Shown: positions 49,021 to 64,000, numbered from the stretch's first letter. The stretch: 64,000 bases of DNA from Candidatus Dojkabacteria bacterium (GCA_050950165.1 JBMNHC010000001.1:593073-657072); one strand, 5' to 3'. The notes: generated by a model not told the origin, from the letters alone. Numbers and translations are program-made.

Positions 49021-52000
49021 ATGAAGCTAAACAAAAAGCTCCTAAAGAAGTCTTTGTATAAGATTTCTACAGTCCTATTTTTAATAGGATATACTTTTAC
49101 CCCACCATTTTTGGCATTTGATCAATTAAGAGATATAGGAGGAGAGATTACTCCTGTAGCTGCTGCTGATGGGCCGTATACTATTTCTTCTACTAGTGGT
49201 ATTTGGACTAAGGTTGAAGGAACAACTAACTATTCTGGTGTGAATACCAGTGAGATAAGATGGGGAACTGGAAATCCAAGAAGTGGACTAAAATTCACTT
49301 CTGCTGGTGCTCAAACTTTTGATGCAAATCAGAAATTTCTCATAGGAGATTTAACACATATGAACTGGCCAGTTTCTGGTGGTACTGCAGATTCTGCAAC
49401 TCTAAAAGTTACTTTGAATTTTTCTCAACCTCCTCTTTCTCCAAATCCAACATTTTCATACAAGTTTAATATAAATGAAACGAGTAATGGATATTCTTGG
49501 TATAAAAATTGTCCAGGATATCCTGATGAACAGTTAAGCACAACCCCATGTGATGATGTGATTACGTTCCCAAGTGCATATGGACAGGAAGTTTTTACAA
49601 TTGGGGATATGAAATATACATTAAAGATTGATGGATTCCAAAGTCAATATCCAACAGGAGATCCTGTATCTAAATTCATAACAGAAGAAAAGAAAGATAA
49701 TGTAGCATATTTGGTTGGTCATCTAAGTTCTATTTTAGTTGAAAAACCAGCTATCTCCATTGTTAAGAAAGTAAATGGACAGGATGCTAATACTCCTGCA
49801 GAAGCAGTAGAGGTAACAGCAGGAGAAACTGTAAATTTTGAATATATTGTACAGAATACAGGTAATGTAAAGTTAACAAACATTGCAGTAACAGATGACA
49901 AAGGAGTACAAGTAACATGTCCAGGAACAGAATTAGAACCAGGTACAAATATGACTTGTACAGGAAGTGCTACAGCTATTGCAGGTGACTATACTAATAT
50001 TGGTACAGTTACATCATCTCATGATTTATCAGCAAGTGATCCTGCAAACTATAAAGGTATTATTCCTACAATTAGAATTTGTCATGCATCTGGTTCACAT
50101 ACAAACCCATATATTGTAAATAATCCAAGTGCATCTGGAGATTTGAATGGGCATGCAGGACATACTGGTCCTATTTGGTTCCCAGGTATAACAGTAGATT
50201 GGGGAGATATCATTCCTTCATTTACATCATATGATGGAGTTTACTTCCCTGGTCTTAACTGGAGTGAGTATGGACAAGCAGTGTATAACAATAACTGTGT
50301 AATTCCACAAGGTAAAATAATTGTAAAGAAAGTTTTAAGTCCAGCTTCTACTAGTAATCAAGCATTTGAAATAGTTGGTAGTGGTACTCCTGCAATAGAG
50401 GGTTCCCCTACTTTCTTGTATTACAGTAATAGCAATATTGGAAGTATTAGTAGGAATCAGTCTCATACATACAATGTAATGCCTGGTACATATAATATTG
50501 CAGAAACAGTACCAGCAGGTTGGAGTTTAGTAAGTAATACATGTTCAAATATTGAAATTACAAATAATGAGACTAAGGAGTGTACTATTACTAATACACA
50601 ACATGGTTCATTAACTATTGTTAAAAGAGCTCTACCATATGGTAATACTTCATTTGGATTTAAACTTTCAGGTAATGGAGTTAGTGAACAGTTTAATTTA
50701 GTAGATAACTCTGAAACAGAAGATGCAAGTAAAACATTTAGTTTAACAACAGGTACATATGCAGTTGCAGAAGATGACTATAGTGCAGATTGGAAAACAA
50801 CACACTCTTGTACAAAAGGTAGTATAGATAATATTGCATTGGGTGCAGGTGAATCAGTAACTTGTACATTTACAAATACAAAATATGGATCTATCTCAGG
50901 ATACAAATTACAAGATGCTGACAACGATGATTCTACTACTACAGATAGAACTCCAGTTTCTGGATGGACAATAATTCTAAAAGATAAGAATGGGACTGAA
51001 ATAGCTAGAACAACAACTAATGTAAATGGATATTATGAATTTACAGGATTACTTCCTGCAGATTACATAGTAACAGAAGGTCTTGAAGTTGGTTGGATAG
51101 TTTTAGTTGGTGATAGCAAGAATGTAACATTAGATGCAGGTGAGAATGAAGAGAATGTGAATTTTGTAAATGTTAAGTTAGGTAGTATTAAAGTTCTAAA
51201 GAATGTTGATACAGATGGAGATGGAGATGTAGATCAGGAGGGTTCAACAGAGTGGTCTTGGACACTTAACGGAGCAAATGCGGGTGCAACAGGTACAACT
51301 AAATCTGATTTGGAACCAGGTTCATATACAATTAAAGAGACAGGTGGCTTAGATAACTTCCACTTTGTTTCATTAAGTTGTACAGGTGCAGCAGATGAAA
51401 GAATCACTATCACAGATGATACTGCTACAATAGATTTAAGATCTGGTGAAGATGTAGTCTGTACATATACAAATGCAAGAAACTTAGGAAAGTTAATAAT
51501 TGAGAAGGAAGTTATTAATGATAATGGTGGTAGTAAGAAGGCTACAGATTTCTCATTCCAGATAGATAGTGAAGATGCAATTCAATTCACTAAGAATGGA
51601 GAGAATGAATTACTAGGAAGAAATGAGTATGTAAGATATGCAGGTCTCTCCTACACTATTACAGAACCTGAAGCAAATCAGGATGGATATACAACTACAT
51701 ACAGAAATTGTGAAGATATTGTAGTTCCTCATGATGGTGAAGTTGTATGTAAGATTACGAATAATGATAGTAAGCCTTCACTAACTCTTGTTAAGGAAGT
51801 TAAGAATGATAACGGTGGTACAGCAGTTAAAACCGATTGGAACTTGAAAGCAGATGGACCTACTCCAATCAGTGGAGATGGTGGTGCAACAAGTGGTGAT
51901 GATTTCCAAGCAGGTACATATATATTAAGTGAGAGTGGAGATGTAGCTGGGTATAATGCAAGTGATTGGAGTTGTACAAATGGTGTTGTAGTTGATGATA

Positions 52001-55000
52001 ACAATGGAATAACCATTGGAATAGGTCAATCTACTGTATGTACAATAGTAAATGATGATATTGCACCTTCATTACAATTAGTTAAAGTTGTTAATAATAA
52101 CTTTGGTGGTAATGCAAAAATTACTGATTGGGCACTAACAGCAACTGGTCCTACAACAATCACAGGAAATGGTGGTGTTACAAGTGGAGATACCTTTAAG
52201 GCAGGTACATATACATTAAGTGAGAGTGGAGATGTAACAGGATATGATGCAAGTAGTTGGAGTTGTACCAATGGTATTACAGTTGATGCAAACAATGGAA
52301 TTACTTTAGGAGTTGGTGAGTCTACAGTATGTACCATTACTAATAGTGATATTCAGCCAACATTGACTTTAGTTAAGACTGTTGTAAATAAGTATGGTGG
52401 TAATAAAGAAGTATCAGACTTTAATCTCTACATAGGAGATACCAAAGTAACAAGTGGTGTTGCTACAGGTGTAAATGCAAATACACAATATACAGTAAGA
52501 GAAGATCAATTAGATGGATATACAGCATCTGATTGGAGTGGAGATTGTAGTGCAGATGGAAAGATTACATTACTTCCAGGTGAGAACAAGACCTGTACTA
52601 TTACAAATAGTGATTCTCAGTCTAAGATTACCGTTATTAAGAAAGTAGTTAATGATAATGGTGGTACAGCAACAGCTAATGATTTTAATATTACCTTAAC
52701 AGACTCCACATTAACGTTTGATGCAGGTGTAAAAGATGGTGATACAACAACTTACACAGCTTCAGTATTTGGAGATGTAAATAAGGAATACACACTATCT
52801 GAAACAGTTGCAAATACAGGATATACAATGGATAGTTTAGAATGTTCTCTCGGTTCTGATGGAGTCTTTACTCTTCCAGAAGGACAAGATGTAACTTGTA
52901 CAATTGTTAACAATGATATCCAACCAAAGCTTACTGTAGTTAAAGTTGTTGATAATGAAACATATGGTAACAAGGAGGTTTCTGATTTCACACTCTATGT
53001 ATCAGGAAATAAGGTAACCAGTGGAGATGTTAATAACTTAGATGCAGGAGAGTATACAGTAAGTGAAGATAACATTGATGGATATGAGGCTACAATAACT
53101 GGTGATTGTGATGTTCAAGGTAAAGTTACATTAAATCCTGGTGATGATAAGACCTGTACTATTACAAATAGAAGTACACACGGTAAGATAGTTATTAAGA
53201 AACTAGTTGAACCTGATACAGATTCTACAGAATTTACATTTACAGGTGATGTAGCTGGAACAATTGGTCATAATGGAACTATTGAAAAGATAGTAGTTCC
53301 AGGAGAGTACTCTGTAGCAGAAACATCTTTAACAGGATGGAATCTGAAATCTCTAGTATGTGATGATACAGATAGTAGTGCAAGTGGATATACAGCAAGA
53401 ATTAAGGTTGGAGATAATGAAACAGTAACATGTACATTTACTAATGAGAAATTAGGAAAGATCTCAGGTTACAAGTACGAGGATAAGAATGGAAATGGTA
53501 TATGGGATGCAGAAGAGCCTGCATTAGATGGTTGGACTATCAACAATGGACTTGGTGATAGTACAACAACAAATGCTAGTGGATACTACGAGTTTACTAG
53601 CTTACCAGTAGGTAATACATATACAATTACTGAAACTCAAAAAGATGGTTGGACTCAAACATCCACTAACCCATCAGCAATTACAATTGTTGCAGGAGAT
53701 GATGTTAAGGATATAAACTTTGGTAACTTCAAACATGTAACAATCAATGTAACTAAAGATGTTGTTGGTATAGATGGAGTAACTGATGTTGAAGACGACA
53801 GAACATTTACTGCACAACTTAATGGTGGAAATGAAAAATTAATATCTGAGACAACAACAGCTACATATACAATTGAACAGCCTGGTACATATACAGTATC
53901 AGAGTTTGATGTGGTGGACTACACATATCTAGGATGCTTCTTAGGAGATGTTGCATTTACTGACTATGCAGTAGAGAGTGGTAAAATATACAATGTAGTA
54001 TGTAAGAATGCACAACTACCAGCAACAGTAATAGTTACAAAGAATGTAGTAAATAGTGATGGGGTTGATGAGGATGTATTCTCAGATGATCAGTTTGATG
54101 TTGTACTTGGTGAAGAAACTAAACAGATTGCAGACACAGCAAATGGTAAGGTACTTGCTACATTTGAAGGATTACAACCAGGAGAGTACACATTAACAGA
54201 AACTGAAAAGGATGGATATATCTTTGAAGGATGTACAAACTCTGAGGGTACTCTTGGAAGTAATGAGACTGTAGAAGTTGTATGTACAAACAGAGTAATT
54301 GATCCTCTTCTTGAGATTGAAAAGAGTAATGATAAAGAAGGTATAGATCAATATGCAGGAGATGAAGTTACATACACAATTAAAGTAACAGCACCTAGCG
54401 ATGAACTAGATGGAACATATGTTCTAAATAATGTAGTTATTTCTGACATTGCTCCAGCAGGATTTGAATATATCTCTGATACATGGACAGCACAGAAGAA
54501 TGGTGTTGATATCATAGTTCCTGAACCTACATATGATGGAGAAAATGCAGCACAGTGGATAATTGGAGATATGAAAGAAGGAGATGAAGTAGTATTAACA
54601 TACAAAACTAAGATCTCTCTTCTTACAGATCCAGGAGTATATCCAGATATCGCATGGGTAAAAGGTGCCTCTATAAGTAATCTTCCTGTTTTGGGTAATG
54701 TATCTACAGATGCTTCTACTCCATTTGTAGGAACAGAAGTTAAAGTAATAGAGCCAATTGAAACAGAAGATGGAGAGGTATTAGGAGCTATATCATATCT
54801 ACCAAAAACAGGTGCAGATACATATCTAACATTAGGAGCATTAGCTATGGTGTTACTAGGCTTGTTTGCCCTACTCTCTAGACCATTTAAGAAATTAAAG
54901 TATGCTTTACTTACAACAGTAATGGCTTTTTCAATACTCTCAGTTGCTTTAGCAACAGAGGTGTTAGCTGAGCCTTACTTAGATGTTAAAATCGAAAAAC

Positions 55001-55812
55001 CAGTAACTCCTACTGCTAAAAAGTCATTTAATATTGATTTCACAGCACAGAGTACATCTGGAGAGACACCAGAAGTGGATTGTTACAAAGATGCAGTTAA
55101 ATTTGCATCCTTTACTGCTAACTCTGGAGCATGTCCAGTAACAGTAACAGAGTCAGGTACATACTCATTCTATGTAGTTGCAACTGCAGGAGGTCAAACA
55201 GAACAATCTGAAACAGTAACAGTCGTAGTAGATTTAACTTCACCATCTCCTGTTACGGGATACAGCAAGAGTGGTAATGTATTAACATTTACAACTGCAA
55301 ATGATGGTAGAACATCTAAGGTTGAGATATTTAGATCAGACAAGTCATCATTTACAGCAAATGCATCAACCCGTCTTGATACAATGAATGTATCACCTAA
55401 TACAACATATACATATACAGATGGAACAGCAGTAGCAGGAAACACATATTACTATGCATTAAGAGCTGTAGATGCATATGGTAATGTCTCAACACTTGTT
55501 TCAGACAATGTAGTGATTGTTGTAAAAGAACCAGCTACTACTACAACTACTAATGTAGCTAAAACAGAAACAAGTGAAGTAGAAGGAGCAACAGATGAAG
55601 ATAAAGATAGTGCATCTAAGGAAGTAAAGGGAGAAACAGATGATAGTACAACTCAAAAAGCAGACGAGGGTAAAGAGAGTAATGAAACTAATGATTCTGA
55701 TTCAGATGAAAAGAAATCATTCCTTAGTTATTGGTATATCTGGGTTCCAGTATTAATTGTATCTGTAGGATTAGTCTATCTTTATGTCAGAAGAGAGAAA
55801 AAGAGTTACTAA
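49021..55812 (+). CDS. Giant LPxTG-motif cell-surface protein (2263 aa). It carries DUF11/'CTITN' Ig-like tandem repeats and CnaB/SdrD-B-like domains. A complete sorting signal sits at about residue 1930. An in-frame signal-peptide-like segment, an FN3-like domain, an acidic linker and a terminal TM follow it.
   Basis: The N-terminus has signal/TM character. About eight ~100-aa repeats end in ...C(T)ITN. GYKYEDKNGNGIWD is a CnaB-type motif. LPKTG + LTLGALAMVLLGLFALL + SRPFKK is a textbook sortase signal. The ORF then continues as KKLKYALLTTVMAFSILSVALATEVLA..., ending in ...YIWVPVLIVSVGLVYLYVRREKK. Confidence 0.85.
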   Translation: MKLNKKLLKKSLYKISTVLFLIGYTFTPPFLAFDQLRDIGGEITPVAAADGPYTISSTSGIWTKVEGTTNYSGVNTSEIRWGTGNPRSGLKFTSAGAQTFDANQKFLIGDLTHMNWPVSGGTADSATLKVTLNFSQPPLSPNPTFSYKFNINETSNGYSWYKNCPGYPDEQLSTTPCDDVITFPSAYGQEVFTIGDMKYTLKIDGFQSQYPTGDPVSKFITEEKKDNVAYLVGHLSSILVEKPAISIVKKVNGQDANTPAEAVEVTAGETVNFEYIVQNTGNVKLTNIAVTDDKGVQVTCPGTELEPGTNMTCTGSATAIAGDYTNIGTVTSSHDLSASDPANYKGIIPTIRICHASGSHTNPYIVNNPSASGDLNGHAGHTGPIWFPGITVDWGDIIPSFTSYDGVYFPGLNWSEYGQAVYNNNCVIPQGKIIVKKVLSPASTSNQAFEIVGSGTPAIEGSPTFLYYSNSNIGSISRNQSHTYNVMPGTYNIAETVPAGWSLVSNTCSNIEITNNETKECTITNTQHGSLTIVKRALPYGNTSFGFKLSGNGVSEQFNLVDNSETEDASKTFSLTTGTYAVAEDDYSADWKTTHSCTKGSIDNIALGAGESVTCTFTNTKYGSISGYKLQDADNDDSTTTDRTPVSGWTIILKDKNGTEIARTTTNVNGYYEFTGLLPADYIVTEGLEVGWIVLVGDSKNVTLDAGENEENVNFVNVKLGSIKVLKNVDTDGDGDVDQEGSTEWSWTLNGANAGATGTTKSDLEPGSYTIKETGGLDNFHFVSLSCTGAADERITITDDTATIDLRSGEDVVCTYTNARNLGKLIIEKEVINDNGGSKKATDFSFQIDSEDAIQFTKNGENELLGRNEYVRYAGLSYTITEPEANQDGYTTTYRNCEDIVVPHDGEVVCKITNNDSKPSLTLVKEVKNDNGGTAVKTDWNLKADGPTPISGDGGATSGDDFQAGTYILSESGDVAGYNASDWSCTNGVVVDDNNGITIGIGQSTVCTIVNDDIAPSLQLVKVVNNNFGGNAKITDWALTATGPTTITGNGGVTSGDTFKAGTYTLSESGDVTGYDASSWSCTNGITVDANNGITLGVGESTVCTITNSDIQPTLTLVKTVVNKYGGNKEVSDFNLYIGDTKVTSGVATGVNANTQYTVREDQLDGYTASDWSGDCSADGKITLLPGENKTCTITNSDSQSKITVIKKVVNDNGGTATANDFNITLTDSTLTFDAGVKDGDTTTYTASVFGDVNKEYTLSETVANTGYTMDSLECSLGSDGVFTLPEGQDVTCTIVNNDIQPKLTVVKVVDNETYGNKEVSDFTLYVSGNKVTSGDVNNLDAGEYTVSEDNIDGYEATITGDCDVQGKVTLNPGDDKTCTITNRSTHGKIVIKKLVEPDTDSTEFTFTGDVAGTIGHNGTIEKIVVPGEYSVAETSLTGWNLKSLVCDDTDSSASGYTARIKVGDNETVTCTFTNEKLGKISGYKYEDKNGNGIWDAEEPALDGWTINNGLGDSTTTNASGYYEFTSLPVGNTYTITETQKDGWTQTSTNPSAITIVAGDDVKDINFGNFKHVTINVTKDVVGIDGVTDVEDDRTFTAQLNGGNEKLISETTTATYTIEQPGTYTVSEFDVVDYTYLGCFLGDVAFTDYAVESGKIYNVVCKNAQLPATVIVTKNVVNSDGVDEDVFSDDQFDVVLGEETKQIADTANGKVLATFEGLQPGEYTLTETEKDGYIFEGCTNSEGTLGSNETVEVVCTNRVIDPLLEIEKSNDKEGIDQYAGDEVTYTIKVTAPSDELDGTYVLNNVVISDIAPAGFEYISDTWTAQKNGVDIIVPEPTYDGENAAQWIIGDMKEGDEVVLTYKTKISLLTDPGVYPDIAWVKGASISNLPVLGNVSTDASTPFVGTEVKVIEPIETEDGEVLGAISYLPKTGADTYLTLGALAMVLLGLFALLSRPFKKLKYALLTTVMAFSILSVALATEVLAEPYLDVKIEKPVTPTAKKSFNIDFTAQSTSGETPEVDCYKDAVKFASFTANSGACPVTVTESGTYSFYVVATAGGQTEQSETVTVVVDLTSPSPVTGYSKSGNVLTFTTANDGRTSKVEIFRSDKSSFTANASTRLDTMNVSPNTTYTYTDGTAVAGNTYYYALRAVDAYGNVSTLVSDNVVIVVKEPATTTTTNVAKTETSEVEGATDEDKDSASKEVKGETDDSTTQKADEGKESNETNDSDSDEKKSFLSYWYIWVPVLIVSVGLVYLYVRREKKSY

Positions 55813-56461
55813 TTGGAAGATCATTGCAGGAGTAGTCTTACTCCTGCTAGGTCTAACTGCCCTCCTTTTGACCTTCTGGTCTGTAATCTCTGTATATATT
55901 TCTCACGTGCTCTCTCCTACTCCATCAACAAGTGTAGTTGAAATTGCAAAAAACAGTTCGGAGATTACTAAAGAGGTAGATAGTCAAACAGAGAAGGTAT
56001 TCGTAGATCCTGAATTTGGATTGTATATTCCTAAACTTAAAACAAATTGCTCCATTGCAGAAAATGTAGACCCCTTTGATAAAGATAGGTATACATCAGC
56101 ATTAAGAAGTAAGATAGCTCATGCTAAAGGAACATCTGTTCCTAACAAAAGTGGTAATGTATTTCTCTTTGGTCACTCTGCAGCAAATTTTTATGAAAGA
56201 CATGATCGTCTAGTCTATTTCTATCTTCTAAGAGAGCTATCTAAAGGTGATGAGATATTTCTAAGTTACAAAGGTGTAATCTACAAGTATGTTGTAGATG
56301 AACTTAAAACAGTATCTCCTGAAGATACAAAATATCTTAAAAATTACTCTGAGAAAGATACTCTTACACTTATGACATGTTATCCACCAGGTGCAGATTG
56401 GAAGAGAACAGTAGTTATCGCTTACAGAGATGAAGTAGAACCAATTGTAAAGGGTCTTTAA
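55784..56461 (+). CDS. Sortase (class A/E-like transpeptidase)
   Basis: 225 aa with an N-terminal TM. The catalytic His is in LFGHS and the active-site Cys in the TLxTC motif (TLTLMTCYP). A conserved Arg lies near the C-terminus. Its start overlaps the LPKTG protein's end by 29 nt. Confidence 0.85.
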   Translation: MSEERKRVTNWKIIAGVVLLLLGLTALLLTFWSVISVYISHVLSPTPSTSVVEIAKNSSEITKEVDSQTEKVFVDPEFGLYIPKLKTNCSIAENVDPFDKDRYTSALRSKIAHAKGTSVPNKSGNVFLFGHSAANFYERHDRLVYFYLLRELSKGDEIFLSYKGVIYKYVVDELKTVSPEDTKYLKNYSEKDTLTLMTCYPPGADWKRTVVIAYRDEVEPIVKGL

Positions 56462-57591
56462 CCTACCTCTTTATCTATCCACTTACTTACTGCTTTTCTT
56501 AAGTCTTCTTTACAGGTTTTTTGTATCTCATCAAATGTATGTGTAGGAGAAGCTATCTCATATATGCTCTCTATTAAATACTTCCTTTTTAGATTTACAT
56601 CATTGATTTCGTTTCTTCCTGTAAAGATAACGAGAGGGATTTCTCTTTTGGTAGTAAACTTAGCAATACCACTTATTGTTTTACCTTCTAAGGATTGACT
56701 ATCAAACTTTCCTTCTCCTGTGATAACGAGGTTTGTGTTATGTAAGATTTTATCAAAATTACACATCTCTAGTATTAAATCTATTCCATTAACAATATCT
56801 GCATTAAGAAAGAATGAGCATGATGCAGCTATTCCTCCAGCTGCACCACCCCCTACTATACTTGAGATATCTACCTTAAATTGTTTTTTAAGAATATTTG
56901 AGTAATGTCTTAAACCGTTGTCTAATAAAATGATTTCTTCTTTACTTGCTCCTTTCTGCTTAGCATATATATACGCTGCTCCATTTTTACCGTAGAGAGG
57001 ATTAGAAATATCTACCATGAGTGTAAATTTAAGATCTTTAATGTTATTTTTTAAACCTGAGTCATCGATACTAATGATTTTGTTTAGGGTAGAGCCTACT
57101 GGTACAAAAGAGTTTCCATCTTTATCTAAGAATTTAACTCCTAATGCAGAGAGTAGACCTGTACCTGCATCGTTTGTAGCACTACCACCTAGAGCAAGAA
57201 TAATGTTTTTTGTACCTTTAGATATGGCGTGCAGGATCTGTTCTCCCATTCCTAAACTAGTTGTAAACATGGGGTTTTTAGGGTTAGCAAATGTAAGTCC
57301 TGCACATTGTCCTGCCTCTATTACTACACTCTTGTCATATTTAACATACTTAAAATTTCTTTTAGTAAAGTTGGGGGAGGTAAAAAGATCTGTTACATAC
57401 TCACCTGAGAAATTTTCAAAGAAGACATCTATGGTATTCTCTCCTCCATCTGCTACTGAGAGTCTAATGACTTCTGCATTTGGTATTTTCCTTAAGATTT
57501 CTTCTTGGATAATGGTGCCTGCTGTAAGGGAGGACATTGTTCCTTTGAAGGAGTCTGGTGCTACCACTATTTTCGTTTTATCCTTCTGCAT
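56458..57591 (-). CDS. Glycerate kinase
   Basis: 377 aa. KIVVAPDSFKGTMSS is the N-terminal motif of the GlxK/GarK family. Confidence 0.85.
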   Translation of the reverse strand: MQKDKTKIVVAPDSFKGTMSSLTAGTIIQEEILRKIPNAEVIRLSVADGGENTIDVFFENFSGEYVTDLFTSPNFTKRNFKYVKYDKSVVIEAGQCAGLTFANPKNPMFTTSLGMGEQILHAISKGTKNIILALGGSATNDAGTGLLSALGVKFLDKDGNSFVPVGSTLNKIISIDDSGLKNNIKDLKFTLMVDISNPLYGKNGAAYIYAKQKGASKEEIILLDNGLRHYSNILKKQFKVDISSIVGGGAAGGIAASCSFFLNADIVNGIDLILEMCNFDKILHNTNLVITGEGKFDSQSLEGKTISGIAKFTTKREIPLVIFTGRNEINDVNLKRKYLIESIYEIASPTHTFDEIQKTCKEDLRKAVSKWIDKEVG

Positions 57592-58805
57592 AGTTGTCTT
57601 TCAAATACATTTTTACCTAACTGTTTAGATTTTTTAGACCAGTATCTAGTAAGTTTACTACTCTCAAAGGTATCAATTAACTCTTTATATTGGTTTACAA
57701 GCTCTTCTTCTTTTTTACTACACTCTAAAGAGAATTGTACTAATTTAGAGTGAGTAGCGTTTTCTTCTTTTAATTGATTGTCTTTCTCTATGAATTCTTT
57801 CTCTAATTTTCTTGCTTTCTCTTTCCATTCGTTTAGGTTAATGATGTTGGAATATATTAGTCTATTTAGTTTTTCTCTTTTTAGCCAGTATTGAAGACTA
57901 TCTTTTTCATTTTTGAAACATGGTGGTACTACAAACTCTTTAGACGGATGGAAGTAGAGAGGTTTAAAGATGGATATACAGGGTGTAGAGGATCCTGTTA
58001 TCCATATCGTTATATCATCATCAACAACAGTTATCATACTGCCAGTTGTATGTTCTCCTAGTATTCCTGCGTGCATACATACGCTTCTTGCAGATCCTTT
58101 TTTAATTATTTTTTCTTGGGTTGTTGTGTGTAGTCTTAGGGTATTGAAATATTGTTCTAGGTCGTACTGTTTAATATTTTTGAGGTGTTGGCTACCTAGT
58201 TCCATTCTACTTTTTGATCCAGAAAAGTATGTGAATATTGGTTCTGTATGCTTTTTAGCAAAGTTTTTATCAGAGAGTCTGTTAGATATGTTAGCACAGT
58301 CTTTTACTTGGTTTAGGGAATATTCTTTTCCTGCTGTTTCTAGTATGTATGCTTCATTTCTGTCTGTGATTAGGTATGAATTATCATAGTAGATTGTATT
58401 GTCAAAGCCACAGTTTCCTCCTTGTCCATATTGTTGTAGTAGCCCTATTATTTCCTCTGTTGCTTGTTTAGCTGTTTTACTTCTTTCAAGTGCAAGTCTT
58501 AAGAAGTCCATCCCTATTAGGGTTGGTGTTTTTTTAGTTTTAGATTTTGTAAATACTGCTTCATTCCCTATACTTACTCCATATTCATTTATTCCCATTT
58601 CTGCTCCCCATATCCATGATGGTTTTACTAGGAGTACAGCATAGTGTTCTTTAGGGTCTGGTATGGATATGTATGTACATTCTACTTGGTTTCTTGAGGG
58701 TCCTGCAGGGTAGAAGATAGTTAGGTTGGGTTCGTTAACGGCTCTGTCACTGTTTTTAAGGAATATGGAGTATTGGTTTTGTTTTTTCCATAGTGTATCA
58801 CACAT
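57567..58805 (-). CDS. C69-family (Ntn-hydrolase) dipeptidase
   Basis: 412 aa. It begins MCDT, with the Cys nucleophile directly after the initiator Met, followed by KNSDR..NEP. Confidence 0.75.
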   Translation of the reverse strand: MCDTLWKKQNQYSIFLKNSDRAVNEPNLTIFYPAGPSRNQVECTYISIPDPKEHYAVLLVKPSWIWGAEMGINEYGVSIGNEAVFTKSKTKKTPTLIGMDFLRLALERSKTAKQATEEIIGLLQQYGQGGNCGFDNTIYYDNSYLITDRNEAYILETAGKEYSLNQVKDCANISNRLSDKNFAKKHTEPIFTYFSGSKSRMELGSQHLKNIKQYDLEQYFNTLRLHTTTQEKIIKKGSARSVCMHAGILGEHTTGSMITVVDDDITIWITGSSTPCISIFKPLYFHPSKEFVVPPCFKNEKDSLQYWLKREKLNRLIYSNIINLNEWKEKARKLEKEFIEKDNQLKEENATHSKLVQFSLECSKKEEELVNQYKELIDTFESSKLTRYWSKKSKQLGKNVFERQLCRRIKRK

Positions 58806-58929
58806 ATATTATTTAAAGATATCATATGGGGGAAGGGGTGTAAATATGGGGTATGAATGGTGATATGTTGTTTGAGAAAGTAGTATCTTTTTGTTAATAT
58901 ATAAAGGATAAATTGGTATATCCTACATA

Positions 58930-60501
58930 ATGTTAAATAGCAATAATACTAAGGAACATGAGAGAGCAGAATTACATAAAACAATATGGCGAATAGCAAA
59001 TGATTTAAGAGGTAGTGTAGATGGTTGGGATTTTAAACAGTATGTACTTGGTATGTTGTTTTATCGTTTCATTAGTGAAAATCTCACTAGTTATCTTAAT
59101 GCAGGAGAGAGAAGAGCAGGAGACAAGGACTTTAACTATGCAGATATTTCAGATAAAAAAGCTGAGAATGGTAGAAAGGATACTGTTGAAGAAAAAGGTT
59201 TCTACATTCTTCCTAGTGAACTTTTTGAGAATGTAAGAAAGAATGCAAAGAATGACCCGAATCTTAATGAAACTTTAGCTAAGGTGTTTGATAATATTGA
59301 GAACTCTGCAAGAGGGTTTGAAAGTGAAGATGATCTAAAAGGTCTGTTTGATGACTTAGATGTGAACTCTAAGAAATTAGGAAATACTGTAGAACAAAGG
59401 AATGAAAAGCTTGTTAAGTTGTTAAATGCAATTGGAGATTTAAATCTAGGAGAGTATTCAGATAATACAATTGATGCTTTTGGAGATGCCTATGAATTCC
59501 TTATGACCATGTATGCTTCTAATGCAGGTAAGTCAGGAGGTGAATTCTATACTCCTCAAGAGGTTAGTGAATTACTTGCAGAGATAACTACGGTAGGCAA
59601 AACAGAAGTAAACAAGGTGTATGATCCAGCTTGTGGTTCAGGTTCATTACTTTTGAAGTTTTCAAAGGTTTTAGGAAAGGAGAATGTAAGACAGGGTTTC
59701 TTTGGACAGGAGATTAATCTTACAACATACAACCTTTGTCGTATAAATATGTTTCTTCATGATATTAACTACAATAATTTTGATATAGCTTTAGGTGATA
59801 CATTAACAGACCCTAAGCATTGGGATGATGAGCCTTTTGATGCAATAGTATCTAATCCTCCATACTCAATTAAGTGGGAGGGAGATAGTAATCCTCTCCT
59901 TATAAATGATCCTCGTTTCTCACCTGCTGGTGTTCTAGCACCTAAGAGTAAAGCAGACTTAGCTTTTACAATGCACATACTTTCTTGGCTTTCTACTAGT
60001 GGTACTGCTGGTATTGTTGAATTCCCTGGTGTGCTTTACAGAGGTGGTGCAGAGCAGAAGATTAGGAAGTATTTGGTAGATAATAACTATATTGATACTG
60101 TAATACAGCTTCCTCCTGATTTGTTCTTTGGTACAAGTATTGCAACTTGTATTATTGTTCTAAAGAAGAGTAAGAAAGAAAATAGTATTCTTTTCATAGA
60201 TGCATCAGAGGAGTTTGTAAGAGAGGGTAACAAGAACAAACTTAGTGAGGAGAACAGGAAGAAGATATTAGATACATTTAAGCAAAGGAAAGATATACAA
60301 CATTTTGCTAAGGTAGTAGATAACCAAGATATTGGAGAGAATGATTACAATATATCTGTATCTTCTTATGTAGAACAGAAGGATACTAGAGAGGTTATAG
60401 ATATTAAAGAACTTAATAAAGAGATAGAGGAGATAGTAAAGAGACAGAATGTATTAAGAGATAGTATAGATAATATTGTTAGGGAGATAGAAGGGGAATG
60501 A
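58930..60501 (+). CDS. hsdM: Type I restriction-modification DNA methyltransferase subunit
   Basis: 523 aa with an HsdM N-domain, EFYTP, a SAM motif (DPACGSGS) and NPPY (SNPPYSIKW). Confidence 0.9.
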   Translation: MLNSNNTKEHERAELHKTIWRIANDLRGSVDGWDFKQYVLGMLFYRFISENLTSYLNAGERRAGDKDFNYADISDKKAENGRKDTVEEKGFYILPSELFENVRKNAKNDPNLNETLAKVFDNIENSARGFESEDDLKGLFDDLDVNSKKLGNTVEQRNEKLVKLLNAIGDLNLGEYSDNTIDAFGDAYEFLMTMYASNAGKSGGEFYTPQEVSELLAEITTVGKTEVNKVYDPACGSGSLLLKFSKVLGKENVRQGFFGQEINLTTYNLCRINMFLHDINYNNFDIALGDTLTDPKHWDDEPFDAIVSNPPYSIKWEGDSNPLLINDPRFSPAGVLAPKSKADLAFTMHILSWLSTSGTAGIVEFPGVLYRGGAEQKIRKYLVDNNYIDTVIQLPPDLFFGTSIATCIIVLKKSKKENSILFIDASEEFVREGNKNKLSEENRKKILDTFKQRKDIQHFAKVVDNQDIGENDYNISVSSYVEQKDTREVIDIKELNKEIEEIVKRQNVLRDSIDNIVREIEGE

Positions 60502-60998
60502 GTCAAACAACAGATCTAGATGAAATTAGAAAACAAACTAGAGTAGCTTTGCCATCAGATAATGCCTATTTATTTAGGTTAGGAGTTGCTTTGTATGCTT
60601 TTAATTCAGTGAATAGTTCCTTGGTGGAAACAATTTGTTGTATAGATAGTAATCAAAAACAAACAGAGTTACTTGATTTAGAATCAGGTAAAATCTTACA
60701 GAGATTTTTTGAAATAATAAGGAATGTTAAAAAGAAAAGTCTTTTTTCTTCTGCTCATGGATTGATGGATGAAGTAGCTGAATTATTTGAGAAAGCAAAT
60801 GCAAATCGTTCAGATTTTGTACATTCATATCCAATTACAAATCAAGAAGAGAAGCAAATTCTGCATCGTAGGAGAGATTCACAAGGTAAATATTTTGAGG
60901 TAGATAATTGTTTCTTAGATGCATTTATTGAAAGTCTAAATCATATAGAAGATTTTTTATATAAAATACGAGAGGAGGTAAAAAGTAAAAATGAATAA
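60498..60998 (+). CDS. Small hypothetical protein embedded between hsdM and hsdS, putatively HEPN-like (R-x4-H motif)
   Basis: 166 aa. It overlaps hsdM by 4 nt (ATGA) and hsdS by 8 nt. It is predicted all-alpha, and NRSDFVH fits the HEPN Rx4-6H signature. Confidence 0.5.
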   Translation: MSQTTDLDEIRKQTRVALPSDNAYLFRLGVALYAFNSVNSSLVETICCIDSNQKQTELLDLESGKILQRFFEIIRNVKKKSLFSSAHGLMDEVAELFEKANANRSDFVHSYPITNQEEKQILHRRRDSQGKYFEVDNCFLDAFIESLNHIEDFLYKIREEVKSKNE

Positions 60999-62220
60999 GA
61001 ATCTAAGTGTTTTACCAAATAAATTAGAGAAACTGGTACGAAATCTATGTCCAGATGGGGTCGAATATGTAAAGTTAGGAGAGGTTGCTCAATATTGTAG
61101 AGGAGTAACTTATAACAAGAGTGATGAAACTGATTCTGAAGAAGGGTTGAAGATTTTAAGGGCAAATAATATTGACTTATCAACAAATAGGTTAAATTTA
61201 GAAGATGTGAAAAAAATATCTTCGTCAGTTAAAGTGCGTGGTAATCAGAAGATAAAAGCTAATGATATTCTAATTAGTACTGCAAGTGGTAGTAAAGAAC
61301 ATGTAGGAAAAGTAGCATATGTCTTTAATGATATGGATTATTATTATGGTGGATTTATGGCAGTATTGAGATCTAATGAAAGATTGGATAGCAGATTTCT
61401 TTTTCATTTACTAGTTGGTAAGACTTTTAATGATTATCTGCGAAGAACATTGTCAAGTACAACAATAAACAATCTAAGTTCAAGGATTATAAACGAATTT
61501 AAAATCCCCCTGCCTCCTCTTGACATACAAAAGGAGATAACTAAAATTCTTAACGAGTTTACAGAGTTGGAGGCAGAGTTGGAGGCAGAGTTGGAGTGTA
61601 GAAAGAAACAGTATGAGTATTATAGTAATGAGCTGTTATCATTTAATGAAGATGGAGAATATAAAGAACTAGGAAAATTGTTAGAAAGAACGAAAGGAAC
61701 AGCTATTACAGCGAAGAGAATGAGTGAGCTTAATAAGGATGGTGCTCCTATTAAAATTTTTGCAGGAGGTAAAACTGTGGCTTATGTAGACTATGGAGAT
61801 ATCCCTAATAAAGATGTTCTTACGGAAGAATCAATTGTTGTGAAGTCTCGCGGTATTATTGGCTTTGAATATATTGATAAGCCTTTTAGTCATAAGAATG
61901 AGTTTTGGTCATATCATAGTAATAATCCTAATGTCTCTGTTAAATATGTATATTATTATTTAAGGAGTAAAGAACCATACTTTCAAAGGATTGGTCAGAG
62001 AATGTCAAAAATGCCACAACTTTCAATTCCAGATACTGATAAATACAAAATCCCCATCCCCCCTCTCTCCGAACAAAAAAGAATTGTATCCATACTAGAC
62101 AAATTCGACTCCTTAGTAAATGATATGTCCATAGGATTACCAGCAGAACTAAATGCAAGAAGAAAACAATACGAATACTATCGTAATAAACTATTAACAT
62201 TCAAAGAATATGGAAAGTAA
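60991..62220 (+). CDS. hsdS: Type I restriction-modification specificity subunit
   Basis: 409 aa. Two target-recognition domains are separated by conserved helical regions (LPPLDIQKEITKILNEF / IPPLSEQKRIVSILDKF; central ELEAELEAELECRKKQYEYY and C-terminal LNARRKQYEYYRNKLL). Confidence 0.9.
   Translation: MNKNLSVLPNKLEKLVRNLCPDGVEYVKLGEVAQYCRGVTYNKSDETDSEEGLKILRANNIDLSTNRLNLEDVKKISSSVKVRGNQKIKANDILISTASGSKEHVGKVAYVFNDMDYYYGGFMAVLRSNERLDSRFLFHLLVGKTFNDYLRRTLSSTTINNLSSRIINEFKIPLPPLDIQKEITKILNEFTELEAELEAELECRKKQYEYYSNELLSFNEDGEYKELGKLLERTKGTAITAKRMSELNKDGAPIKIFAGGKTVAYVDYGDIPNKDVLTEESIVVKSRGIIGFEYIDKPFSHKNEFWSYHSNNPNVSVKYVYYYLRSKEPYFQRIGQRMSKMPQLSIPDTDKYKIPIPPLSEQKRIVSILDKFDSLVNDMSIGLPAELNARRKQYEYYRNKLLTFKEYGK
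61564..61596 (+). repeat. About 2.75 copies of a 12-bp tandem repeat (gagttggaggca) encoding (ELEA)n in the HsdS central conserved spacer
   Basis: The direct sequence read is gagttggaggca gagttggaggca gagttggag. Confidence 0.6.
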
Positions 62221-64000
62221 TCATAAATATAACCTCGTTGTTGAAAACCCTCAAAGTACAGTAGTAGGACAATACACACCTAGTAAACTAAGAGACAAAT
62301 CATATCAAAGTGAAGCACAATTAGAAAAAGAATTCATAAAACAATTACAACAACAAGGATATGAATACCTTCTAATAAACAATGAAGAAGACCTAATAAT
62401 TAATCTAAGAAAACAATTAGAAAAATTAAATGAAATTACATTCTCTAATGAAGAATGGGAAAGATTCTTTAATAGTGAAATAGCTAATAAAAACCAAGGT
62501 ATAGAAGAAAAAACAGAGACAATACAAGAAGACTACATCAAAATATTAAAAAGAGATGATGGAACAGAAAAAAACATATACCTAATTAGAAAAGACAACA
62601 TACATTACAACAGCCTACAAGTAATTAATCAATATATAACAACAGGAGGACAGAGAGATAACAGATACGATGTAACTATCCTTGTAAATGGCCTTCCTCT
62701 AGTACATATTGAATTAAAAAGAAGAGGCATAGCACTACAAGAAGCATTCAATCAGATAAACAGATATCAGAGAGAAAGTTTTTGGTCAGACTCTGGACTA
62801 TTTGAATATGTACAACTCTTTGTAATATCTAATGGTACACATACAAAATATTACAGTAATACAACTAGATTCCAACATATCAAAGAGATGGGTGAGGGGT
62901 CTTTGTCAAAAAGAAGAAAAACAAGTAACTCATTTGAATTTACAAGTTGGTGGGCAGATGCAACAAACAAACCAATACCAGAACTAATGGATTTTGCTAA
63001 AACCTTCTTTGCTAAACATACAATCCTAAACATTCTTACCAAGTATTGTATCTTTACAACAGAGAAGATGTTACTTGTGATGAGACCGTATCAGATAGTG
63101 GCTACAGAGAGGATATTGAACAAGATTGAAATTAGTACAAACTACAAAAAACTAGGAACAATTGAAGCCGGAGGATATATCTGGCATACAACAGGTTCAG
63201 GTAAGACTCTAACAAGTTTTAAGGCTGCACAACTAGCAACTCAACTACCATACATTGAGAAAGTTCTTTTTGTTGTTGATCGTAAAGACTTAGACTATCA
63301 AACAATGAGAGAATATGACAAGTTTAAGGAAGGAGCTGCAAACAGTAATACAAGTACAAAGATTCTTAAACAACAACTAGAAGATCCTGATGCGAGAATA
63401 ATTATTACAACCATTCAGAAGTTAGACAACTTTGTTAGAAGAAATACAGGTCATCCTGTCTTCAACAGTCATATTGTTATTATCTTTGATGAATGTCATA
63501 GATCACAATTTGGTGATATGCATGCAGCAATAGTTAAAGCATTCAAGAGATATCATCTATTTGGTTTTACAGGAACACCTATCTTTGCTGCTAATGCTTC
63601 TTCTAGTGGACGACCAGATATGAAAACAACAGAGCAAGTGTTTGGAGAGAAGCTACATACATATACAATTGTCGATGCTATTTCAGATAAAAATGTATTA
63701 CCTTTTAAAGTTGACTATGTCTCTACTGTTAAAGAGGCAGAGAATATTGAGGACAAACAGATAAGTGATATTGATAGGGAAGCTGTTTTAGCTGCACCAG
63801 AGAGATTAGAAAACATTGTTAGATATATCATTGAACATTTTGATCAAAAAACAAAAAGAAATAGTTTTTACAAACTTAAAGATAGAAGATTAGCAGGTTT
63901 TAATTCAATCTTTGCAGTATCTTCAATCGATGTAGCTATGAAGTACTATGCAGAGTTTCAAAGGCAATTGGCTAACTTACCAAGTGACAAAAGGTTGAAG
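62210..64000 (+). CDS. hsdR: Type I restriction enzyme R subunit, 3'-truncated at the window edge
   Basis: The ATG at 62210 overlaps hsdS by 11 nt. The frame stays open to 64000 (597 codons). An HsdR N-domain is followed by helicase motif I (TGSGKT) and a DECH box (IIFDECHRS). It is absent from the ORF track, presumably because no stop codon lies in the window. Confidence 0.85.
   Translation, partial: MESNHKYNLVVENPQSTVVGQYTPSKLRDKSYQSEAQLEKEFIKQLQQQGYEYLLINNEEDLIINLRKQLEKLNEITFSNEEWERFFNSEIANKNQGIEEKTETIQEDYIKILKRDDGTEKNIYLIRKDNIHYNSLQVINQYITTGGQRDNRYDVTILVNGLPLVHIELKRRGIALQEAFNQINRYQRESFWSDSGLFEYVQLFVISNGTHTKYYSNTTRFQHIKEMGEGSLSKRRKTSNSFEFTSWWADATNKPIPELMDFAKTFFAKHTILNILTKYCIFTTEKMLLVMRPYQIVATERILNKIEISTNYKKLGTIEAGGYIWHTTGSGKTLTSFKAAQLATQLPYIEKVLFVVDRKDLDYQTMREYDKFKEGAANSNTSTKILKQQLEDPDARIIITTIQKLDNFVRRNTGHPVFNSHIVIIFDECHRSQFGDMHAAIVKAFKRYHLFGFTGTPIFAANASSSGRPDMKTTEQVFGEKLHTYTIVDAISDKNVLPFKVDYVSTVKEAENIEDKQISDIDREAVLAAPERLENIVRYIIEHFDQKTKRNSFYKLKDRRLAGFNSIFAVSSIDVAMKYYAEFQRQLANLPSDKRLK

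Follow-up and report, generated by a model that had tools for sequence, protein, structure and literature searches.

A 12-bp tandem repeat in the HsdS subunit of a distant Type IC restriction-modification system from Candidatus Dojkabacteria is probably an evolvable spacer ruler

In the Type IC restriction-modification (R-M) systems EcoR124I and EcoR124II, a 12-bp repeat within the gene for the specificity subunit HsdS is present twice in EcoR124I, which recognises GAAN6RTCG, and three times in EcoR124II, which recognises GAAN7RTCG (PMC3874165). The extra TAEL unit widens the gap between the target recognition domains (TRDs) by 0.34 nm and turns them through 36 degrees, hybrids with altered repeat number show the spacer shifts that were predicted, and three is the ‘optimum’ number of repeats according to the review by Loenen et al. 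(PMC3874165). Here we analyse a 64,000-nucleotide stretch of DNA from a Candidatus Dojkabacteria bacterium (GCA_050950165.1 JBMNHC010000001.1:593073-657072; the whole stretch is referred to as the window), in which the hsdS gene of an EcoR124-like operon carries a perfect 12-bp tandem repeat encoding ELEA units. This repeat is very probably the evolvable, tetra-amino-acid spacer ruler of a Type IC HsdS.

Repeats of this type are widely described. Tandem repeats of TAEL, LEAT, SEAL and TSEL typify HsdS proteins of Type IC, in which a 6-bp spacer goes with two repeats and a 7-bp spacer with three (PMC10030836), and in Neisseria gonorrhoeae the number of LEAT units correlates with recognition of GACN6TGC versus GACN7TGC (PMC6789123). 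The absolute length of the spacer is influenced by the TRD-helix junctions as well (PMC5399793). In Xylella, a 12-base LEAE repeat is present in 0.75-3.75 copies, reaches 11.75 in a single strain and differs in copy number even inside one allele, while 31 strains of X. taiwanensis have an invariant 2.75 copies (bioRxiv 10.1101/2022.09.01.506293). Published work already treats the tetra-amino-acid repeat as a hallmark of Type IC HsdS, and the LEAE form with 2.75 copies is part of that record; what is new here is the host only, a genome of the Candidate Phyla Radiation (CPR), Dojkabacteria, with a distant Type IC system.

The gene and the repeat lie in the window as follows.

60991..62220, + strand: hsdS, Type I specificity subunit, 409 residues, intact (Pfam PF01420 in two stretches, E=3e-41; PADLOC Specificity_I)
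61562..61596, + strand: perfect 12-bp tandem repeat (Tandem Repeats Finder, sequence, significance test)

The two Methylase_S stretches recognised by Pfam fall within the 409-residue protein, the PADLOC Type I specificity models cover its full length, and its sequence matches, at 100% identity, the NCBI protein ‘restriction endonuclease subunit S’ (MGI6423590.1; P0001 in our set) from a Candidatus Dojkabacteria metagenome-assembled genome (MAG). Tandem Repeats Finder places the repeat at 61562-61596 with a period of 12, 2.9 copies, 100% matches and no indels. The repeat is 35 nt long, of which 33 nt are in the codon register GAG TTG GAG GCA (2.75 copies). In the hsdS frame the DNA reads ACA, then GAG TTG GAG GCA twice, then GAG TTG GAG and finally TGT AGA AAG, with TTTACA flanking the tract on the 5' side and [T/A]GTAGAAAG on the 3' side. 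It is translated as T-ELEA-ELEA-ELE-C-R-K, with ELEAELEAELE forming HsdS residues 192-202. The initial annotation had described a short, perfect 12-bp (ELEA)n repeat of about 2.75 copies at the centre of HsdS, and both the DNA and the peptide reading are confirmed.

The tract is the sole perfect period-12 run of at least 26 nt across the 64-kb window, and its length of 35 nt compares with 20.4 nt on average and at most 25 nt in 200 shuffles. TTG accounts for 6.8% of Leu codons in the window, yet it is used in all three ELEA units, and, given the peptide and the codon usage of the window, the probability that the later units would reproduce the codons of the first is P ~1e-4. The units are copies at the level of DNA, beyond the level of protein.

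Comparison with EcoR124 places the repeat precisely. The phmmer alignment of HsdS with the EcoR124 HsdS chain 7bst_A is ungapped through the centre of the protein (query PLPPLDIQKEITKILNEFTELEAELEAELECRKKQYEYYSNELLSF), and the repeat segment FTELEAELEAELECRKKQYEYY lines up position by position with the TAEL repeats of 7bst_A, so that the ELEA/EAEL units sit at the exact positions of two TAEL units. The depositors of 7bst name the molecule EcoR124II; the chain nonetheless has two TAEL units, which is the EcoR124I (N6) state (PMC3874165). As the alignment to (TAEL)2 is ungapped, the window allele belongs in the two-unit class, with a linker of 12 residues, where the linker is defined as the stretch between the conserved F-T anchor and RKKQY. 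Homology with EcoR124I/II and an equivalent position had been proposed from the sequence at the outset, as had the shift from N6 to N7 on gain of one unit at this position; the alignment and the EcoR124-like HsdM and HsdR bear out the former, and the latter is documented for EcoR124I/II (PMC3874165).

The repeat lies between two TRDs, and the parts of HsdS are arranged as follows.

61051..61500, + strand: TRD1, approximately residues 21-170 (PDB match 2y7c_A, comparison of P0001 with P0003)
61519..61635, + strand: central conserved region, a helix with the repeat and the RKKQYEYY motif (AlphaFold2, alignment with EcoR124 HsdS)
61660..62055, + strand: TRD2, approximately residues 224-355 (sequence comparison)
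62065..62193, + strand: distal (C-terminal) conserved region (AlphaFold2 model; coiled-coil pairing from PMC3874165)

In the AlphaFold2 model of HsdS (predicted local distance difference test score, pLDDT, of 88), residues 177-215 form a single unbroken helix that contains the repeat (192-202), and the distal region contributes helices at residues 359-377 and 383-401. Pairing of the central and distal regions as a coiled coil has been described from solved HsdS structures (PMC3874165), and the distal helices here are, by analogy, the presumed partner of the central helix. PPL and R(R/K)KQY are 26 residues apart in the centre and 30 in the distal region, so one further 4-residue unit, a third, would make the two distances equal, which fits the ‘optimum’ of three repeats given in the review (PMC3874165). 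TRD1 resembles the N-terminal TRD of EcoKI, a Type IA enzyme (PDB 2y7c_A, query 21-189, E=2e-15), and TRD2 is ~93% identical to that of the relative P0003 and ~75% identical to those of the HsdS proteins P0030 and P0032. The gene also contains a 37-nt direct repeat of 73% identity (61496-61532 and 62042-62078, + strand, 546 nt apart), whose copies encode KIPLPPL and KIPIPPL and precede the central and distal conserved regions respectively; it follows from the two HsdS halves being an internal duplication.

The likeness to EcoR124I/II thus includes the position in the central helix, the 12-bp/4-residue period, the flanking ILxxFT...RKKQYxYY and homologous HsdM and HsdR subunits, and the linker length equals that of the two-unit form, as in EcoR124I. 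The locus differs in that the unit is EAEL/ELEA rather than TAEL, the TRDs are different, a further gene (orf166) lies between hsdM and hsdS, and the host is a CPR bacterium instead of an enterobacterial plasmid. Xylella fastidiosa XfaII hsdS is similar in the unit itself, as LEAE is ELEA in another register, in the placement of the repeat in the core conserved region and in having 2.75 copies as one of its described states, and that repeat has also been read as a Type IC spacer-length determinant; copy number there varies between strains and within an allele, whereas one state is seen here in two relatives. NgoAV of N. gonorrhoeae is likewise a Type IC system whose HsdS has a central tetra-amino-acid repeat, of LEAT units, with the N6/N7 correlation drawn from methylome data, but there a poly-G tract truncates HsdS by frameshift, and no frameshifting tract is seen here.

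In the mechanism proposed for the Dojkabacteria protein, the repeat codons would form part of the long central α-helix, which would pair with the C-terminal helix in an antiparallel coiled coil that holds the TRDs at a fixed distance and rotation, and the number of 4-residue units would measure out, like a ruler, the non-specific spacer in a bipartite recognition sequence. With a linker of the same 12-residue class as EcoR124I, HsdS would keep its own two half-sites at the shorter spacer. As the units are identical in DNA, one could be added or removed by slipped-strand mispairing or by unequal recombination, and, because the 12-bp period keeps the frame, such a change would not inactivate the gene; by analogy, it would shift the spacer by 1 bp per unit. 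The ruler would change on evolutionary timescales rather than as a fast phase-variation switch. We infer the N6-type spacer, slippage or recombination as the source of new alleles and the resulting change of specificity in this organism from the described systems.

That linkers of this family change by whole units is seen in surveys of three kinds of sequence. Linkers of 8, 12 and 16 residues were found in 1, 144 and 23 of 168 database proteins, in 3, 27 and 32 of 62 species genomes, drawn from many phyla with Saccharibacteria among them, and in 1, 38 and 22 of 62 metagenome loci, which also contained one 4-residue outlier. Linker length in the family is almost always quantised in 4-residue steps. 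A perfect period-12 DNA run of at least 24 nt is present in 48 of the 62 species-genome loci and 44 of the 62 metagenome loci (~70-77%). The variable dipeptide is common to both units in 45 of 67 distinct 12-residue linkers, compared with 13.2 on average and at most 25 in shuffles, and rare derived dipeptides are shared as pairs within proteins (EQ/EQ, EV/EV, NT/NT, ET/ET). Where the unit is ELEA, the codons used differ by lineage and are identical across the units within each gene, as in the following loci.

Window and L001: GAG TTG GAG GCA
L094: GAG CTG GAA GCA
L103 and L028: GAG CTA GAA GCA
L121: GAG CTG GAA GCG
L130: GAA CTG GAG GCG
L074: GAA CTC GAA GCA

Judged from these sequences, the shared dipeptides and lineage-specific codon sets indicate concerted evolution, in which units have been duplicated and lost repeatedly, or converted, in each lineage.

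Alleles that differ in unit number are found elsewhere in the family. The proteins P0079 (596 residues) and P0105 (592 residues) are identical at 592 aligned positions and one ISEL unit (12 bp) apart; they are ‘extended’ HsdS proteins with three TRDs, whose nearest named relatives are from Streptococcus, and their loci are L003 (4001-5791), L004 (4001-5779) and L005 (2838-4616), with L003 and L005 99.5% identical over 8.1 kb. They form a natural EcoR124I/II-type pair outside the enterobacteria. P0030 and P0032 are one unit apart and have different TRD1 sequences, with TRD2 identical. In E. coli, the Type IC central region was found in 1205 of 5426 complete genomes, where the two-unit span of 129 nt and the three-unit span of 141 nt both occur commonly, with ~590 records matching the two-unit query and ~430 the three-unit query at the level of at least 95%. 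Longer arrays also occur there, with (TAEL)6 in an intact hsdS (L008, E. coli PCP06235, NZ_CM129869.1 4109827-4110123) and (TAEL)5 in an hsdS annotated as partial (pseudogene; L009, E. coli JA0072, NZ_CP070227.1). The survey supports continual turnover of the module by gain and loss of units across many phyla.

The lineage of the window (SPECIFICALLY) has two sequences in public data, the window itself and the relative P0003, whose loci L001 and L002 are Logan assemblies from two samples (SRR30067281 and SRR30067306). P0003 is the sole close relative in the data searched, the next relatives having at most 77% identity: a protein search with the centre and TRD2 half of HsdS returned only P0003 above 77%, and a scan of metagenome loci with the same half returned none above that value. 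The window operon and L001 have 89-91% nucleotide identity. TRD1 is wholly different in the two (61051-61500 versus 5001-5500 of L001), whereas the centre, TRD2 and C-terminus are 93% identical, and TRD1 has been swapped by recombination. The 33-nt tract, its copy number included, is identical in the window and L001, with differences in the flanking codons (AAC/AAT and TGT/AGT). Such conservation is unremarkable given a codon divergence of 12% (P ~0.21), and this pair gives no ground for proposing a special constraint at the nucleotide level. The more distant locus L094 (77% identical) has one ELEA unit more, in another codon set. On present evidence, which is one comparison, copy number appears stable in this lineage.

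These comparisons bear on the possibility of an active population-level switch, in which units would often be gained and lost and cells with 1, 2 and 3 units would coexist, diversifying restriction and methylation. Variation in R-M specificity within a population had been put forward in the initial annotation, and it finds no support here: the related-genome comparison of copy number proposed there gives equal numbers for the window and L001, and no 2- versus 3-copy variants were found in this lineage. A switch would draw on a repeat that is perfect in DNA and in frame, on the turnover of units in the family with its one-unit variants between near-identical loci, on the variation among Xylella strains inside a single hsdS allele and on L094, with the same unit type and one more unit. 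It is at odds with a close relative that keeps an identical tract and copy number at ~10% nucleotide divergence, with the lack of -1, +1 and +2 unit variants among ~15 billion proteins and with the invariant 2.75 copies of 31 X. taiwanensis strains; in addition, there are 2.9 copies of a long unit, and even a three-unit tetranucleotide tract varies at only ~1e-6 (PMC7383803). We regard such a switch as unlikely. That the Dojkabacteria population, with its small CPR genome of ~0.72 Mb, is polymorphic for 1, 2 or 3 ELEA units is a distinctly doubtful proposition; if true, one Type IC system would have several specificities (N5, N6, N7) with no extra genes, a cheap generator of diversity for an episymbiont with a reduced genome.

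A static amino-acid periodicity, on which selection on the coiled coil alone would have produced the pattern, with the DNA identity incidental to codon bias and no history of unit gain or loss, is highly improbable. The helix is conserved under purifying selection, and the identity of the window and L001 tracts would be compatible with this view, since twelve identical codons in a row are not unusual at P ~0.21. The reuse of the rare Leu codon TTG, at a codon-match probability of ~1e-4, does not follow from it, nor do derived dipeptides present in both units (EQ/EQ, EV/EV, NT/NT) or the differences in copy number among relatives, and the lineage-specific ELEA codon sets, uniform within genes, largely refute it. 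An artefact in which MAG assembly would have collapsed or expanded the repeat is next to impossible to credit, for although short tandem repeats can be mis-assembled in metagenomes (a caveat in PMC7383803), the 35-nt tract is shorter than any modern read, independent Logan assembly of the relative from two samples gives the same tract, and the resulting linker length is the commonest in both the protein-database and the metagenome samples.

Other known routes to switching in Type I systems were also considered. Systems based on simple sequence repeats (SSRs) or shufflons resemble the case proposed here in that the outcome would be Type I specificity diversified via repeats in or near hsdS, but they rely on long frameshifting, non-triplet tracts or on recombinase inversion between several hsdS copies. 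By the criteria of Atack et al. 2019, a phase-variable SSR has a unit that is not divisible by three and a long tract, with slippage at a high rate leading to frameshift or ON-OFF switching, and tracts such as the one here were explicitly excluded from that survey, which quotes the ~1e-6 rate given above (PMC7383803). The tract in the window has a 12-bp unit, divisible by three, in 2.9 copies. A tblastn search of HsdS against the window matched only hsdS itself, and no long inverted repeats were found in 56000-64000. A frameshifting SSR switch was rejected as there is no frameshifting tract, and a shufflon or inverting system was rejected as the window has hsdS only once and 56000-64000 lacks long inverted repeats, the DNA downstream of hsdR falling beyond the window end. 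The features of an EcoR124-style switch that are found are the homologous position in the helix and in-frame units 100% identical in DNA; alleles differing in unit number only are found elsewhere in the family (P0079/P0105, E. coli with 2, 3, 5 and 6 units, Xylella), and the two sequences of this lineage have equal unit numbers.

The operon in which hsdS lies comprises four genes in the order hsdM-orf166-hsdS-hsdR, all on the + strand, and the genes for the other two enzyme subunits are as follows.

58930..60501, + strand: hsdM, N6-adenine methyltransferase, 523 residues, EcoR124 type (Pfam HsdM_N and N6_Mtase, PDB 7bst_D)
62210..64000, + strand: 5' part of hsdR, 596 codons, running out of the window end (PDB 2w00_A, TIGR00348)

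The start of hsdR overlaps the end of hsdS by 11 nt. HsdM matches the EcoR124 subunit 7bst_D at E=9e-193, compared with ~5e-15 for EcoKI M, and HsdR matches EcoR124 HsdR (2w00_A) at E=2e-164. Against the E. coli EcoR124-type locus L007, HsdM has 57% identity and 73% positives, and the first 585 residues of HsdR have 49% identity and 66% positives, values below the ‘usually >70% similarity’ of classical family members (PMC10030836). The features of Type IC found here are HsdM and HsdR subunits closest to those of EcoR124, the order hsdM-hsdS-hsdR with orf166 inserted, and a tetra-amino-acid repeat, ELEAELEAELE, between the FT anchor and RKKQY. The EcoR124_C domain (PF12008) is present in HsdR of the closest relative (L001) and of L003-L007, and the corresponding region of the window hsdR falls beyond the window end. 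GC content gave no signal of recent horizontal acquisition, at 32.5% in the R-M region and 34.0% elsewhere in the window. An imperfect period-12 repeat is found within the 5' part of hsdR (62317-62356, + strand; 3.3 copies, 73% matches, 13% indels, unit ACAATTACAAAA); it is an A-rich, low-complexity sequence, and chance or composition probably accounts for it.

Several points weigh against reading the ELEA repeat as a spacer ruler of Type IC kind. The locus is classed as a distant Type IC (EcoR124-like) system by sequence and gene order, while the classical definition, by subunit complementation, antibody cross-reaction and DNA hybridisation, is experimental only, and its HsdR appears rather remote from the E. 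coli prototype at 49% identity. Spacer length and the effect of copy number are carried over to the Dojkabacteria system by analogy, and ‘N6’ may be off for this pair of TRDs, as the TRD-helix junctions also count (PMC5399793). Alleles of the same lineage with other unit numbers did not appear: exact-flank, variable-gap DNA scans for alleles of 1-4 units gave 0 matches in a set of one genome per species and 0 matches in the JGI metagenomes, and -1, +1 and +2 unit variants constructed from P0001 and P0003 were absent, as exact sequences, from ~15 billion proteins.

If the system is EcoR124I/II-like, a bipartite methylation motif with the shorter, N6-type spacer is predicted, and within the gene the repeat would be the single site at which a 12-bp change retargets the enzyme. 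This would be of use in reading CPR methylomes and in understanding the barriers to phage and to DNA uptake in CPR bacteria.

The slot between hsdM and hsdS is occupied by a small gene whose start and stop overlap both neighbours.

60498..60998, + strand: orf166, unannotated conserved gene of 166 residues in the hsdM-hsdS slot (start/stop overlap both neighbours)

The orf166 protein had no match in Pfam, PADLOC or NCBIfam. It belongs to a family of ~160-residue ‘hypothetical’ proteins, with 193 homologs in diverse phyla and an invariant motif R104-x-D106-x-x-H109 (Rx4H). Its AlphaFold2 model (pLDDT 89) is mostly helical with a short β-hairpin, and Foldseek returned no PDB neighbour of this model; weak matches to PF18730 (Cthe_2314-like HEPN) occur in 11 of 43 family members. 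In two of three further contexts, orf166 homologs lie between hsdM and hsdS of EcoR124_C-type loci (L010 and L012), and in the third (L011, Stenotrophomonas) the homolog adjoins an SMC/AAA_13-like ATPase. The cargo of the slot differs among loci: that of the closest relative holds a 718-residue AAA_13 protein instead of orf166 (L001 2839-4995, L002 1683-3839), AAA_13 being the Pfam family of PrrC/RloC-type ATPases, while RhuM is found in the loci with three-TRD HsdS (L003-L005) and Fic together with the orf166 homolog in the Lactococcus-like locus L012. A tentative reading of orf166 is that of a small accessory effector, HEPN-like, which is carried in this variable Type IC slot.

Elsewhere in the window, a 2263-residue repetitive surface protein (49021-55812, + strand) has an LPKTG-like motif and, after it, a hydrophobic stretch ~370 residues before its C-terminus, beyond which come one more domain and another hydrophobic segment, at the C-terminus. 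The next open reading frame, which overlaps it (55784-56461, + strand), looks sortase-like when its sequence is inspected by eye. It is unusual for a sorting-like signal to lie internally, as it does in the 2263-residue protein.

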